A stretch of DNA of 64,000 bases from Escherichia coli (GTDB lineage Bacteria; Pseudomonadota; Gammaproteobacteria; Enterobacterales; Enterobacteriaceae), in NCBI RefSeq assembly GCF_003790525.1, contig NZ_CP033635.1. One strand, written 5' to 3'. Position 1 is the first letter of the stretch. Every line of letters starts with the position of its first letter. Under the pieces are notes generated by a model. It made no database searches and was not told the DNA's origin. It saw only the letters and a list, made by a program, of their open reading frames with translations. Position numbers and translations under genes: made by a program. This document shows positions 12,210-18,293 of this stretch, in pieces.

Positions 12210-13289
12210 TTACTGCATCATGACCTCACGAACGAAATCTTTTTTGAGCTGTGTACTGTACGCTTTGCCATAAAACTTCACCGTGGGCTCCGGGATCTCA
12301 TTCAGATCCGGACGGAGCTGTTTGTTCATCGGCGTGGAGCCGAAGACTTTACTCAGTGCATGTTGCGTTTCAGGCTGAATCAGCCAGTTGAGGAATAAGC
12401 GTGATGCCGCCGGATGTGGGCTGTTGGCGGCAATGGCAGCGATGTTACCGCCGCCAGGCATGCCAAACTCCGGTACGTAAAATTTCAGCCGCGAATTGAT
12501 AGCCCCGGTTTTTTGTAGTCCGACAAGATGATCTTCCCAGGATGGTGTCAGCATCAACTCGCCGTCATTCAGGCGTGTCAGACTATCAGCACCGGAGGCC
12601 GTGCGGGTAATTTTGTCCTTATTAGCGGCAAACCACTGCCAGCCTTTCTGCCAGTTTTTCACCACTGCCGGGTCAACGCTCTCCGCTTCGCTGTTAAACG
12701 TGTCGCCCTGAGTAGTGACGATGCGCTGGATAAAGGCTTCCCCAGCGCCGCCGTTGTTCGGGTCGTTATAGCCGAACTTTTTCGGGTTGGCGTCGATAAA
12801 GCTCTGCAACTGCTCCAGCGTTTGTGGCAGCGCCCGGTCACCCATCTGCTGCGGGTCGTAAGCAAATCCGGTCTGGTTGCCCCAGAACGCCACGGCATAA
12901 CCCTGGGTGTCAACGTTCTGAATCTGGTGAATGGCGTCGCCATAGCCCGGCAAATCGTCCACCTTCGCCAGCGCTTTCGCTCCCATTGCCACTGGCAGTT
13001 GCGCAACAGACAAGGCGATAACATCTATTTTACCTTTTTTTTTCCCCGCTTCTGCCAGCAACTTGTTCACGTTTCCGTCGATATTCCCTTCCGGGATGCG
13101 CACCTTAACGCCGTACTGCTGCTCAAAATCCTTCACAAAGCTGCGCCACTGCGGCTGTAAGTACCAGACGTTAAAGGTCACGCTGCCCTCTTTTTTCGCT
13201 TGGGCAATCAGGTCGGGGCTATCCGCCGCCGTTGCCAGCGAGCTGCACAGCAGGCCGCCCGCCAGAATCATCACTGTTTTTTTCATCAC
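12210..13289 (-). CDS. ABC transporter periplasmic substrate-binding protein (PotD/PotF-like family)
   Basis: 359 aa with signal peptide; last gene of a four-gene ABC operon on the minus strand. Confidence 0.75.
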   Translation of the reverse strand: MMKKTVMILAGGLLCSSLATAADSPDLIAQAKKEGSVTFNVWYLQPQWRSFVKDFEQQYGVKVRIPEGNIDGNVNKLLAEAGKKKGKIDVIALSVAQLPVAMGAKALAKVDDLPGYGDAIHQIQNVDTQGYAVAFWGNQTGFAYDPQQMGDRALPQTLEQLQSFIDANPKKFGYNDPNNGGAGEAFIQRIVTTQGDTFNSEAESVDPAVVKNWQKGWQWFAANKDKITRTASGADSLTRLNDGELMLTPSWEDHLVGLQKTGAINSRLKFYVPEFGMPGGGNIAAIAANSPHPAASRLFLNWLIQPETQHALSKVFGSTPMNKQLRPDLNEIPEPTVKFYGKAYSTQLKKDFVREVMMQ

Positions 13290-13307
13290 ATTATCTCCTG
13301 TAAAAGG

Positions 13308-14192
13308 TCAGGCTTTTCCCGTGGATTGCGACAGATAGTTCCCCTTCAGCAACTTCTCAATGATGACCATCAGGATGACATTGGGGATCACCAGAATCAT
13401 CGACACCACCGCCGCATCCGGGCGGACGAAGGAGTAGCCAAGGAAAGAGTAAAGAATGGTCGGAACGGTGATAAAGTCCGGCGCGCCCAGCACGTATGAG
13501 ATGCTGAACTCTTCCAGGCTTCGCACCAGACAAAAAATCAGCGCCGCCAGGAAGCTCGGTTTCAGCAGCGGCAGATAGGCATTGCAGAAGGTGTCCCACG
13601 CGCCGGAGCCCAGGTCGCGGCTGGCGTCGATCAGATCCTGCGGCACCGACTTAAACCCCGCAGACATAATGCGGATCGAATAGGGCAGCGTCAGTACCGT
13701 ATGGCCGATAACAATGCTGATAAACGCGTTGTCGATATTGAGGTTGATCAGCATGGCGCTGAAAAAAATCCCGATCAGCATCCCCGGCATCACCAGCGGG
13801 ATCAGAGTCAGCATCTCCGCCACCGCCTTACCGCGAAAGGTCATGCGCCCGAAGGCATACGCGGTGGGTAGCGACAGCAGCAGGCTGGCGACCGCTACCG
13901 CAGGCGCAATGGTGTAGCTGTTGAACAGCGCCTCGGAAAGCGAAGTCTTTTCCCATACCAGCAGCCAGCGGCTGAACGACAGCACGGGCGGGAAGATATC
14001 CGGGTAGCTCCACGGATGGGCCGGGTCAACCAGCGACCAGAGGATCGCCATGCCGAACGGCATGCCCAGCCAGATCAGATTAGCGACCACGAAGAAGATC
14101 AGCGAAATCGTCACCACCCGGCAACCGTTGGCAGTGTGGCTCATTTGACCTCTCCTTTGCGGGTGGCGAACGGGGTAATCAGTGTGGCTCAT
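13308..14192 (-). CDS. ABC transporter permease (PotC-like); the first 16 codons derive from a 48-bp tandem duplication
   Basis: 294 aa; N-terminus MSHTDYPVRHPQRRGQ-MSHTANGC... shows a second in-frame Met, consistent with a duplicated start junction. Confidence 0.8.
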   Translation of the reverse strand: MSHTDYPVRHPQRRGQMSHTANGCRVVTISLIFFVVANLIWLGMPFGMAILWSLVDPAHPWSYPDIFPPVLSFSRWLLVWEKTSLSEALFNSYTIAPAVAVASLLLSLPTAYAFGRMTFRGKAVAEMLTLIPLVMPGMLIGIFFSAMLINLNIDNAFISIVIGHTVLTLPYSIRIMSAGFKSVPQDLIDASRDLGSGAWDTFCNAYLPLLKPSFLAALIFCLVRSLEEFSISYVLGAPDFITVPTILYSFLGYSFVRPDAAVVSMILVIPNVILMVIIEKLLKGNYLSQSTGKA

Positions 14193-14228
14193 TTGACCTC
14201 TCCTTTGCGGGTGGCGAACGGGGTAATC
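14133..14228. repeat. Perfect 48-bp tandem duplication spanning the stop/start (ATGA) junction of the two permease genes
   Basis: agtgtggctcatttgacctctcctttgcgggtggcgaacggggtaatc occurs twice in tandem (14133-14180 and 14181-14228). Confidence 0.9.
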
Positions 14229-16119: not shown

Positions 16120-16334
16120 GAGTCTCTCTTCTATCGGTTAAAAAGATGATTATTAAATTTACATACTAAACATTAAATTTATGTGACACAGATCCTTAAA
16201 GCTAAAAAATGATCTAAATATCAAATTAAAATCATATAAAACAATGGATTAACCATAAAATAACAAAAACATCTTTCACATTTAAATTTAAGTAGTAAAG
16301 TTAATTACCATCTTACATTCGAGAGGAAAAGAAG

Positions 16335-17165
16335 ATGGCGTTTAACTTTCACCGGGCGGCAGAGGGGATCGTGCTGGCCAACAGCCACCGAGGTTATTCC
16401 AGCTGCGCGCCGGAGAACACATTCCCGGCCTTTGAAGCCGCCCGCCTGGCGGGAACCCACTGTATTGAAATCGATATCCACCTGACGGCGGATAACCAAC
16501 TGGTGGTCACGCACGATCACCGTATCGACCGGGTATCCACCGGACACGGATTTGTGGAGCAGATGACGTACCCGCAGCTGCTGGCGTGCGACTTTGGCGT
16601 GAAATACCATCCGTCGTTTGCCGGAACGCGCATCCCCTTGCTGGCGGACGTGCTGCGCTGGGCGGTGGAAAACAGCATGGGGCTGATTGTTGAGGTCAAA
16701 CAGCGCAACCGCCATGACGAGTTTGTGGCGGCGCTGGTCGCACTGCTGCATGAGCATCTGGATGCCCTCGGCCATATCCAGTTGCTGGGCTTCAACCATG
16801 TGCTGATCAACCGGGTGAAGGCGCAAATCCCGCAACTGGCGTTACAGGTGGTGACGCTGGAGCGCTACAATAACCAGCTTGCGGCGGTACAGCAGTCCAA
16901 TGCCGGATGCGTCTGCTTTGAGTTCGAGTTCGCCCATATCGACGACCTGCGGGCCTACAAAAATGCCGGACTGGGCGTGCGGATGTATCTGCATGAAATG
17001 AAAAACGGCATGACGCCGCTGGAGCAGTACGACTATAAATTCGGCTGTGACAGTCGTCCGGTGATTATCGGCTGGATGCAGGCGGGGCTGATTGATATGC
17101 TCAGCCACGATGATATTCCGTATTTGCAGGGACTGATTGAAGAAGCAGGCCTGCGCTGGAACTAG
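16335..17165 (+). CDS. Glycerophosphodiester phosphodiesterase (GDPD family)
   Basis: N-terminal ...ANSHRGYSSCAPENTFPAFEAA...HCIEIDIHLTADNQLVVTHDH... matches GDPD catalytic motifs; no signal peptide, so likely cytoplasmic. Confidence 0.8.
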   Translation: MAFNFHRAAEGIVLANSHRGYSSCAPENTFPAFEAARLAGTHCIEIDIHLTADNQLVVTHDHRIDRVSTGHGFVEQMTYPQLLACDFGVKYHPSFAGTRIPLLADVLRWAVENSMGLIVEVKQRNRHDEFVAALVALLHEHLDALGHIQLLGFNHVLINRVKAQIPQLALQVVTLERYNNQLAAVQQSNAGCVCFEFEFAHIDDLRAYKNAGLGVRMYLHEMKNGMTPLEQYDYKFGCDSRPVIIGWMQAGLIDMLSHDDIPYLQGLIEEAGLRWN

Positions 17166-17180
17166 AAAAATAAGGACACC

Positions 17181-18293
17181 ATGAACGCCCACTCTGAACG
17201 CCTTGAACTACGTGGTTCGCAGCGCCTGCTGCTGGAACTGATCCGTCTCCACGCCCCGGTGACGCGGGCTGAACTGGCACGGCTGTCGGGACTGACGGCG
17301 GGGGCGATCACCCAACAGTGCCGAGAGCTGATGTTCTCCGGCCTGGTGGTGGAAGGGGAGCGCAATACCGGGCAGCGCGGCCAGCCGTCGCTGCCGTTGC
17401 GCCTTAACCCCGGCGGCGGTTGTGCTATCGGGTTGTCGTTCAGTCCCGGTTTTATCGATATGACGGTGGTCGATCTCAGTGGTCGCCAGCTGCTGTCGCT
17501 TTGCGAAGCACATCAGGAGAATCAGCCACTGGAGGCCTCTCTCGCGCAGATCAAAACCTTGGTGGAGAAAATGCTGAAAAAGCGCCAGCTCCAGCACGCA
17601 CGTATTCTCGGCATTGGCTATGCAGTGCCCGGATTTCTGAAAGCGGATGGTCGCAAGCGCCACAGCGTACCGTGGCTGGAGAGCTGGCGTGAGGTAGATC
17701 TCCAGCAGGCGTTTGCCGACAACCTGCCGTGGCCGACGTGGGTGGAAAATAATGCCAACGCCTCGGCGGTAGGTGAACTGTACAGCGGCAAATGGAATGC
17801 GTACAGCGATCTAACCTTTATCGACCTTGGCTACGGTATCGGCGCGGGTATTATCTCCGGGAATAAAATGCTACGCGGCGGGTTCTGCAATGCCGGTGAA
17901 GTCGGGATGGCGTTTCCATCCGGTACACCGCGCCCGTCGTATAAGGATTTGCTTGCCACACTGGAGCGTGAAGGATTCAGTGAAACTAAGCTACCGGAGC
18001 TGATAGCCGGGCAGCACCCACTGCTGGAAAGCTGGTTTGAACGCTGTCGTGGCCAGGTGGAGCAGACGCTCTTCAGCTGTGTGCAGTGGGTAGACCCGCA
18101 AATCATCGTACTCGGTGGCGCGATGCCGAAACCAATTATCAGTCGTCTGGTGCAGGAACTGAATCAACTGATGGAAGCCTGCCTCGATCCCAACCGCCCC
18201 AGAGTGAAGTTAGCTGCCTCTTCGATGGGAGCACAGAGTGCGTCATGCGGCGCGGCGATGCTCCCGTTGTATAAGGTGATTAATAATGGATAA
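17181..18293 (+). CDS. ROK-family transcriptional regulator (NagC/Mlc-like)
   Basis: 370 aa; N-terminal HTH followed by a ROK sugar-kinase-like fold (glycine-rich GIGYAVPG motif). Confidence 0.8.
   Translation: MNAHSERLELRGSQRLLLELIRLHAPVTRAELARLSGLTAGAITQQCRELMFSGLVVEGERNTGQRGQPSLPLRLNPGGGCAIGLSFSPGFIDMTVVDLSGRQLLSLCEAHQENQPLEASLAQIKTLVEKMLKKRQLQHARILGIGYAVPGFLKADGRKRHSVPWLESWREVDLQQAFADNLPWPTWVENNANASAVGELYSGKWNAYSDLTFIDLGYGIGAGIISGNKMLRGGFCNAGEVGMAFPSGTPRPSYKDLLATLEREGFSETKLPELIAGQHPLLESWFERCRGQVEQTLFSCVQWVDPQIIVLGGAMPKPIISRLVQELNQLMEACLDPNRPRVKLAASSMGAQSASCGAAMLPLYKVINNG

Follow-up and report, generated by a model that had tools for sequence, protein, structure and literature searches.

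The 64,000-nucleotide stretch of Escherichia coli DNA analysed here (assembly GCF_003790525.1, contig NZ_CP033635.1; hereafter the window, whose positions number the open reading frames (ORFs)) carries at 12210-18293 six intact ORFs arranged as two divergent operons, one encoding an ATP-binding cassette (ABC) importer in the order ATPase, permease, permease and substrate-binding protein (SBP), the other an enzyme of the glycerophosphodiester phosphodiesterase (GDPD) family followed by a transcriptional regulator of the ROK family. Judging from genomic context, we somewhat favour a sugar phosphodiester of the agrocinopine/xanthosan class over phospholipid head groups as the compound that this module imports and splits; the broader statement, that it is a ROK-controlled module for a phosphodiester nutrient, is much safer. 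Sugar phosphodiesters, that is the agrocinopines and since 2025 also xanthosan, are known as nutrients that plant pathogens make their hosts produce for the pathogens' own use, and what is new here is a widespread, uncharacterised module of ABC importer, GDPD or 2H phosphodiesterase, and ROK regulator that is tied to both plant-pathogen systems and to AvrBs2-like genes of enteric bacteria. A keyword search of the literature on this gene combination found no description of the module, and database annotation of its genes is generic only.

The gene content (Pfam SBP_bac_8, GDPD, and winged helix-turn-helix plus ROK domains), the divergent two-operon layout and the AT-rich spacer between the operons, all proposed in an initial annotation of this DNA, stand as described (Table 1). 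A copy in E. coli strain 135 is 99.9% identical, and RefSeq annotates the same six genes there. DNA similarity between the window and a relative at 79% identity (locus L092) is bounded exactly by positions 12210 and 18293, and since the same gene order also recurs in dozens of genera the arrangement is not a product of chance.

Table 1. The module and the elements of its regulatory spacer, in window positions
Feature	Position	Strand	Remarks
SBP (periplasmic substrate-binding protein)	12210..13289	-	359 aa; Sec-type signal peptide predicted; SBP_bac_8
ABC permease, PotC-like topology	13308..14192	-	RefSeq start of the same gene is later, about 14144 (278 aa)
ABC permease, PotB-like	14189..15055	-	ORF and family-level similarity
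ABC ATPase	15052..16119	-	leads the transporter operon; stop overlaps start of the following gene
Divergent regulatory spacer	16120..16334		215 bp, 24% GC
Direct repeat, two copies of TTAAATTTA	16153-16161 and 16173-16181		20 bp apart, near the transporter start
Degenerate CRP-like site TGTGACACAGATCCTT	16182..16197		3 mismatches to TGTGA-N6-TCACA
Candidate ROK operator, 23-bp inverted repeat TTAAATTTAAGTAGTAAAGTTAA	16282..16304		TTAAAY-N11-RTTTAA, one mismatch
GDPD phosphodiesterase, AccF-like	16335..17165	+	276 aa; Pfam GDPD
ROK transcriptional regulator	17181..18293	+	370 aa; 15-nt gap after GDPD, called co-transcribed

Conservation was surveyed at 80 loci, each from a different species. 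The ROK gene adjoins the transporter in 57 of them, GDPD in 47 and a 2H phosphodiesterase (PF08975/DUF1868) in 20, with one or the other enzyme present in 62; the 2H enzyme takes the place of GDPD at 15 loci and stands alongside it at five more. Loci that depart from this linkage belong mostly to Haemophilus and Aggregatibacter. Homologues of the SBP occur in Enterobacterales, Pasteurellaceae, Vibrionaceae, Alphaproteobacteria and some spirochaetes, none of them functionally named in the sources, and the linkage of GDPD or 2H enzyme and ROK regulator spans Gammaproteobacteria to Alphaproteobacteria, the spirochaete loci keeping GDPD. Further neighbours include a gene of the inositol-monophosphatase (IMPase) family in 11 loci and a CpsG-like phosphomannomutase in five (the Vibrio coralliilyticus group), and from these families the accessory neighbours are taken to process sugar phosphates. 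The same Vibrio group (L051-L054 and L069) also carries a conserved 533-aa protein after the transporter and ROK genes (for example 12465-14066 of L051), which matches nothing in Pfam or NCBIfam, and a glycosyltransferase similar to mannosylglucosylglycerate synthase, which scores 400 bits where the model cutoff is 640.

This linkage bears on a rival explanation, that an ordinary polyamine, 2-aminoethylphosphonate (AEP), thiamine or iron importer happens to stand beside GDPD and ROK genes, which we regard as hardly credible. It draws on the resemblance of the permeases and ATPase to PotBC/PotA and PhnTUV, a resemblance at family level in which the permeases score 81.5 bits on PotC (cutoff 326) and 79.8 on PotB (cutoff 348), and the ATPase about 330-360 bits on the PhnT2, UgpC and PotA models, each below its cutoff (PotA 329 bits against 482, UgpC 333 against 432). 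The SBP, which has a signal-peptide-like N-terminus as read from its sequence, is recognised by Pfam SBP_bac_8 (E 2.6e-31), but its family-level matches fall far short: the best in NCBIfam is the generic YnjB-like model PRK11622 (61 bits against a cutoff of 203), PhnS models give 27-34 bits against cutoffs of 310-395, PotD and PotF models are absent among NCBIfam matches at E <= 0.001, and the UgpB model is not matched in the same scan. Iron, polyamine, thiamine and AEP binders are among the Foldseek neighbours of the AlphaFold model of the SBP (pLDDT 88.5), but so are uncharacterised, pyridoxal-phosphate and sugar-phosphate (AfuA) binders, all at 12-18% identity; the PhnS structure 4r6y shares 13% identity, and AfuA (PDB 4r73) ranks 46th at 18%. 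The structure-based prediction of substrate recommended in the initial annotation was thus uninformative, and the PotD/PotF-family assignment made there holds at the superfamily level only. By sequence the SBP is best placed in an orphan clade of cluster-D/SBP_bac_8 binders, and with distant neighbours only its ligand is not readable from homology. It does not group with binders of polyamines or AEP, and GDPD is linked to the transporter in other genomes, so the outcome named in the initial annotation as refuting its reading did not arise. Neither polyamine nor phosphonate genes recur nearby, which also argues against an ordinary importer.

The enzyme of the module matches Pfam GDPD (PF03009) with an E value of 9e-27 and aligns with PDB 2pz0 (E 2e-22) such that H18, R19, E45, D47, H60, E120 and K122 fall on identical residues; its catalytic residues are intact, and by domain and alignment it is a member of the GDPD superfamily. 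Its N-terminus, MAFNFHRAAEG, reads as having no hydrophobic leader, in keeping with the predicted cytoplasmic enzyme without a signal peptide of the initial annotation. In BLASTP it is 33% identical to AccF of the Agrobacterium plasmid pAtK84b across 260/276 aa (118 bits, E 7e-35), and it scores 107 bits on PRK09454, the UgpQ equivalog model, where the cutoff is 264. The main rival explanation begins here: the module may be a second Ugp-like system that scavenges glycerophosphodiesters, importing glycerophosphocholine, glycerophosphoethanolamine, glycerophosphoglycerol or glycerophosphoinositol, which GDPD would convert to glycerol-3-phosphate and an alcohol. The canonical catalytic residues, the score on the UgpQ-type model and the naming of the best solved relatives as glycerophosphodiesterases all speak for it, and deacylated phospholipid head groups are plentiful in animal hosts. 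We nevertheless consider it unlikely, for reasons that lie in the company the module keeps and in its control.

Parallels with the acc operon of Agrobacterium are instructive. Homologues of the SBP at 37-40% identity are found on 12 Agrobacterium plasmids. On the tumour-inducing (Ti) plasmid pTiAg57 (L098) the genes of the transferred DNA (T-DNA) are followed by two short ORFs and a ROK gene, divergent from an operon of ATPase, permease, permease, SBP, GDPD, IMPase and Na/Pi symporter, after which come traR and the occ genes; on an A. vitis plasmid (L099) the operon extends with aldose epimerase, sucrose phosphorylase and alpha-galactosidase before traR. The acc region of pAtK84b runs accR-accABCDE-accF-accF-accG and then, further on, Na/Pi symporter, epimerase and sucrose phosphorylase, and its tail matches those of L098 and L099 at 84% identity for the Na/Pi symporter, 68% for the epimerase, 30% for IMPase against AccG and 34% for GDPD against AccF. 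The window SBP is 39-40% identical to the SBP of this acc-variant operon, the window ATPase is 50% identical to that of the pTiAg57 module, and the ROK regulators share 25-27% identity over their full length, while AccA gave no BLASTP match to the window SBP and the partial AccR sequence was not among the matches of the window ROK protein in an all-against-all BLASTP. These comparisons indicate a non-orthologous displacement, in which a ROK regulator and a window-type ABC importer stand in for AccR-AccABCDE ahead of an orthologous acc tail. Such a replacement in an acc-type operon counts against glycerophosphodiester uptake, as do the sucrose phosphorylase and alpha-galactosidase linked to it and the phosphomannomutase of the Vibrio loci.

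The two short ORFs of pTiAg57 (L098 2086-3363; 35354-36448 region of the record), annotated as hypothetical, lie between the T-DNA and the ROK module. The sole NCBIfam match of the first is AvrBs2 (63.5 bits), and the second carries TRCYDFSV where AvrBs2 has SYRFEDFSV (R-x-x-D-F-S-V), with a C-terminal ISD motif at the expected distance. Genes of the acs type sit at the T-DNA edge (PMC8087989), and the two ORFs look like a split Acs/AvrBs2-type gene in that position. The Agrobacterium operon (4787-15892 of L098; 3973-19014 of L099) is followed by traR, with two flanking copies of traR in A. vitis F2/5. This combination of ROK, ABC, GDPD, IMPase and Na/Pi genes with traR suggests an uncharacterised conjugal-opine regulon, and on Ti plasmids traR is probably coupled through the variant acc operon to some conjugal opine.

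A second parallel comes from Xanthomonas (Wang et al. 2025, PMC12807533), whose AvrBs2 is a synthetase of GDPD ancestry and produces the sugar phosphodiester xanthosan. Further products of the avrBs2 cluster are the ROK regulator XanR, the TonB-dependent outer-membrane transporter XanT and the 2H phosphoesterase XanP, the last of which releases galactose-1-phosphate from xanthosan by hydrolysis and left the tested phospholipid analogues uncleaved; an inner-membrane importer for xanthosan was not identified in that study (PMC12807533). XanP was compared by way of peptide fragments around both of its catalytic motifs, derived from the mutagenesis primers of the published work, and these fragments match the module-linked 2H proteins at up to 11/17 identities (z about 10), the spacing between the two histidines being 97-105 in the module-linked proteins and 105 in XanP. 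By this motif match the module-linked 2H proteins are assigned to the XanP subfamily. Replacement of GDPD by an enzyme of a subfamily whose namesake spares the phospholipid analogues tested, or its presence alongside GDPD, again argues against glycerophosphodiesters. A profile search with the 2H family returned no Xanthomonas protein among the 120 matches listed, most of which were rhizobial and fungal DUF1868 proteins. The family is common in fungi (Mycena, Trichoderma, Colletotrichum, Cladophialophora and others) among those matches, and XanP-like enzymes may have roles well beyond bacteria.

The alternation of GDPD and 2H enzymes at the locus, together with the 11 IMPase-family neighbours, is also what would be expected if the module took up an inositol or polyol phosphate or a cyclic phosphate (glycerophosphoinositol or inositol 1,2-cyclic phosphate, for example), the ester being opened by GDPD or the 2H enzyme and the product dephosphorylated by IMPase. 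2H enzymes classically open cyclic phosphates. This explanation is quite unlikely, however, in that the IMPase of the Ti plasmids is the counterpart of AccG (30% identity) within an acc-type operon with sucrose-handling genes, inositol catabolic genes do not recur among the neighbours of the module, and the substrate of XanP is a hexose phosphodiester (PMC12807533).

For the outer membrane, a Pfam Porin_1 gene directly adjoins the module in L089 (13733-14782) and L092 (10694-11815), and such module-adjacent porins may provide a dedicated channel in the role of XanT. Four Pantoea loci and a soil proteobacterial metagenome-assembled genome, L074 (L068, L070, L071, L074 and L075), have a conserved 359-aa neighbour, c20, whose N-terminal sequence reads like that of an OmpC/PhoE porin.

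Genes resembling avrBs2 are themselves found with the module in enteric bacteria. The Xanthomonas study recorded AvrBs2-like proteins in animal pathogens as well, naming Salmonella, Providencia stuartii, Corynebacterium, Trueperella and Pasteurella, and identified no nutrient system for them there (PMC12807533). Beside the Providencia module lies a GDPD protein of 642 aa whose N-terminus looks like a signal peptide; its best family match is AvrBs2, although weak at 48 bits. The family of this large GDPD covers the genera named in the Xanthomonas work except Pasteurella multocida, and adds Proteus, Erwinia, Lelliottia and Citrobacter; its enterobacterial members have the core HRG-FD and FHD-x-x-G motifs in common with AvrBs2. 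All enterobacterial AvrBs2-like genes with visible context (Providencia, Proteus, Salmonella, Lelliottia, Citrobacter and L092) adjoin the ROK-GDPD and divergent ABC genes, some with a porin, in settings that look plasmid-like or like integrative and conjugative elements (ICEs). This linkage to AvrBs2/Acs-type genes is a further point against glycerophosphodiester scavenging. The Trueperella gene comes after those for an SBP_bac_8 binder, an ATPase, a permease fusion and a small GDPD in a single operon, whose importer is distant from that of the window (ATPase 47% identical; SBP 24% over 115 aa), and the Corynebacterium copy is solitary. The AvrBs2-like query returned an enteric and actinobacterial clade only and did not reach Xanthomonas; a 721-aa match, P0304, was considered as AvrBs2 and rejected. 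In Citrobacter freundii (L095 5594-17881) two 813-aa AvrBs2-like genes flank ROK-GDPD with a 52-aa ABC_tran fragment alongside, and the ICE-like region around this rearranged module also holds an integrase and a TraI_2-family gene.

The regulator and the spacer point to control of a carbon source. The window regulator has the N-terminal winged helix (HTH_24, residues 13-56, E 2.9e-4) followed by the sugar-kinase-like ROK domain (residues 93-242, E 4e-19) that define the ROK family, and it scores about 70-74 bits on the Mlc and NagC models, far under their cutoffs. Equivalent divergent spacers from 32 loci, compared with dinucleotide shuffles as controls, are about 190-245 bp long across genera and have two conserved end blocks. 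The inverted repeat at 16282-16304 ends 31 bp upstream of the GDPD start codon, at a position conserved in the spacer alignment, and TTAAAY-N11-RTTTAA with at most one mismatch, a motif derived from these same spacers, is found at 24 sites in 17 of the 32, as against 2.2 +/- 1.5 sites in shuffles, an enrichment of about tenfold that is limited to inverted repeats with a spacer of 11. We infer that the ROK protein binds this repeat, and the suggestion in the initial annotation that the spacer holds the likely ROK-controlled promoter gains from it. The direct repeats at 16153-16181 fall in a block conserved across Enterobacterales (seen in the spacer alignment, with no separate statistics) and may form a second operator, weaker than the first. 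Up to two mismatches being allowed, CRP-like sites occur in 16 of the 32 spacers against 2.7 +/- 1.6 in shuffles, and are perfect in five Pasteurellaceae loci; the window copy, with three mismatches, misses this threshold. No convincing Pho box was found in the window or the related spacers (8 loci at <=4 mismatches, where shuffles gave 3.2 +/- 1.6 and at most 8), and Pho-regulated phosphorus scavenging was rejected on this ground. An Rfam scan of 11-20 kb matched no RNA family. The ROK regulator, the enriched CRP-like sites and the lack of a convincing Pho box are the basis for calling the regulation carbon-type, and the spacer pattern fits a ROK-repressed, catabolite-sensitive carbon module.

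Taken together, the ROK regulator, the CRP-like sites, the 2H enzymes, and the Acs-type and acc context weaken the case for glycerophosphodiesters. The initial annotation was right to set the module apart from Ugp as a phosphodiester-scavenging system, but the glycerophosphocholine, -ethanolamine, -inositol or amine-phosphodiester substrates that it envisaged give way, in comparative context, to sugar phosphodiesters of the agrocinopine/xanthosan class. Several observations weigh against this assignment. With no close structural relative of the SBP (12-18% identity), the substrate class rests wholly on genomic context, and the GDPD resembles UgpQ-type models (107 bits) about as much as it does AccF. 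The operator motif was tested for enrichment in the sequences from which it came. In Xanthomonas neither xanT nor xanP is induced by xanthosan, and a xanR knockout has no virulence phenotype (PMC12807533). The enterobacterial large GDPDs score 30-48 bits on an AvrBs2 model whose cutoff is 1000, and the AvrBs2-specific R544/D547 motif was undetected in them by ungapped scoring, for which reason we do not call them synthetases; given their signal-peptide-like N-termini they may be secreted hydrolases. Finally, no AvrBs2/Acs-type gene was found in the window or, by blastn, in the complete E. coli genomes searched, and most of the 80 loci are likewise without one.

If the sugar-phosphodiester assignment is correct, the periplasmic SBP would capture the compound, and the two permeases and the ATPase would carry it into the cytoplasm, where the AccF-like GDPD, or in other lineages the XanP-type 2H enzyme that replaces it, would cut it to a sugar and/or sugar phosphate destined for central metabolism. 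The ROK protein would repress both divergent operons through the 23-bp inverted repeat until released by the substrate or a cleavage product. A precedent exists in Agrobacterium, where arabinose-2-phosphate releases AccR. E. coli would hold only the uptake and utilisation half of such a system and, as no AvrBs2/Acs-type gene was found, would consume a compound originating from other bacteria, the host or the diet.

Of 5,426 complete E. coli genomes only 20 hold the whole module, many of these carriers being from chickens, and PLSDB contains no plasmid with the module at high identity. In the window it lies within a genomic island inserted at selC: the tRNA-SeC gene is at 56538-56632 (minus strand), with an integrase-sized ORF alongside (55054-56238) and the core genes yicI/yicJ beyond. 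Strain TUM9803 has the same island backbone without the segment from about 9.1 to 29 kb, and this segment (approximately 9100-29000) is a block bounded by insertion sequences (ISs) that comprises sodC, the module, a yebF pseudogene, abgT, an S6 autotransporter protease (SPATE) and IS66 copies; strain 135 carries the same block in another context, beside ter genes. Identity of the island with AGI-3, a selC island of avian pathogenic E. coli, was considered, and two papers on related subjects contain no mention of the genes found here. We propose that the module is a self-contained, horizontally mobile nutrient unit. An alternative is that it is functionless cargo, a hitch-hiking remnant in an IS-rich island that is neither expressed nor used in E. 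coli, as might be argued from the IS-bounded block and its rarity, from the absence of a synthase partner and porin in the window, and from the Yersinia pestis copy (L013, about 6300-8300), in which the ATPase gene appears to be interrupted, with two fragments and an intervening ORF, and the distance between GDPD and ATPase is longer, which suggests that this copy is pseudogenised. In E. coli, however, none of the six ORFs is disrupted, their identity across carriers among the matches listed is at least 99.6%, and both the operator-like repeat and the catalytic residues are preserved, so that cargo without function is highly unlikely.

Other genes of the island are recorded here in their own right. 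sodC, for a periplasmic Cu/Zn superoxide dismutase (11590-12114), is directly downstream of the SBP gene, and its segment is 99.5% identical on several plasmids of E. coli and E. albertii, mostly from poultry. The SPATE, an S6-family serine protease autotransporter with a 1,274-aa ORF (21663-25487), is 3.4 kb from the module. Between them are the YebF-family pseudogene (18442-18741, with an internal stop according to the L001 annotation) and an AbgT-family transporter gene (19792-21351), and the GC content of this stretch, 28-43% against 56-62% for the module, suggests a separate origin. Further along, 37099-43524 encodes a carbamate kinase, a xanthine-permease-like protein, YlbE, FdrA, an AllH-like/DUF2877 protein, an ankyrin-repeat protein and a LysR regulator, and resembles an accessory copy of a gene set for oxamate or purine catabolism; 47520-49499 holds a gene of the PhoX family.

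Were the sugar-phosphodiester assignment true, it would name a candidate importer family and regulator for these nutrients, extend this feeding strategy to gut and animal niches, and offer a testable reason for the presence of the module within a virulence-associated island of some E. coli. A more ambitious scheme, which we put forward tentatively as a possibility that may well fail, is that animal-associated Enterobacterales run an economy in which a sugar phosphodiester is made, taken up and used. The private compound would be the product of AvrBs2-like enzymes that Providencia, Proteus, Salmonella, Citrobacter and Lelliottia secrete, the ABC-GDPD-ROK module would be the system for inner-membrane uptake and utilisation not identified in the Xanthomonas study, and the E. 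coli strains with the module only, which are enriched among poultry isolates and carry it with SPATE and SodC, would act as cheaters that harvest the compound in the gut or at sites of infection.

Comparison with known systems helps to place the module. Like Ugp of E. coli (UgpBAEC with UgpQ) it joins an ABC importer to a cytoplasmic GDPD that would split the imported phosphodiester, but its SBP has no UgpB match, its ATPase and GDPD fall under the UgpC and UgpQ cutoffs, and its control looks to be of ROK/CRP type with no Pho box. With PotABCD/PotFGHI and PhnSTUV it shares a four-gene architecture and family-level similarity of permeases and ATPase, and it differs from them in an SBP with no PotD/PotF match and at most 34 bits on PhnS models, and in neighbourhoods unrelated to polyamine or phosphonate metabolism. 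AfuA, the binding protein of the AfuABC hexose-phosphate importer, is a cluster-D binder that was earlier taken for an iron binder and binds sugar phosphates, and it is among the structural neighbours of the window SBP; the identity is only 18%, however, and AfuA has no associated phosphodiesterase or ROK regulator. The acc operon is closer: it too unites an ABC importer, a repressor and a cytoplasmic phosphodiesterase of the GDPD family, its AccF-type enzyme has a full-length counterpart in the window, and its variants on the A. vitis and pTiAg57 plasmids hold a window-type transporter and ROK gene. It differs in having five transporter genes where the window has four, in AccA, which is annotated as an oligopeptide-type binder with no detectable similarity to the window SBP, in AccR, which is not a ROK protein, and in the AccG-like phosphatase, traR and nearby synthase that the window lacks. 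The xan system has in common with the window a ROK regulator and a sugar-phosphodiester hydrolase, its XanP subfamily is found beside this transporter in 20 of the 80 related loci, and AvrBs2-like genes flank window-type modules in several Enterobacterales; the window itself uses GDPD in place of a XanP-type 2H enzyme, has no AvrBs2 homologue and, in its annotated flanks, no TonB-dependent gene of the XanT type. The module is thus akin to both acc and xan and belongs to neither, its SBP, transporter architecture and regulator being unlike those of acc and its hydrolase and outer-membrane component unlike those of xan, and what it brings to the comparison with Xanthomonas is an inner-membrane ABC importer, the part absent from the Xanthomonas study.

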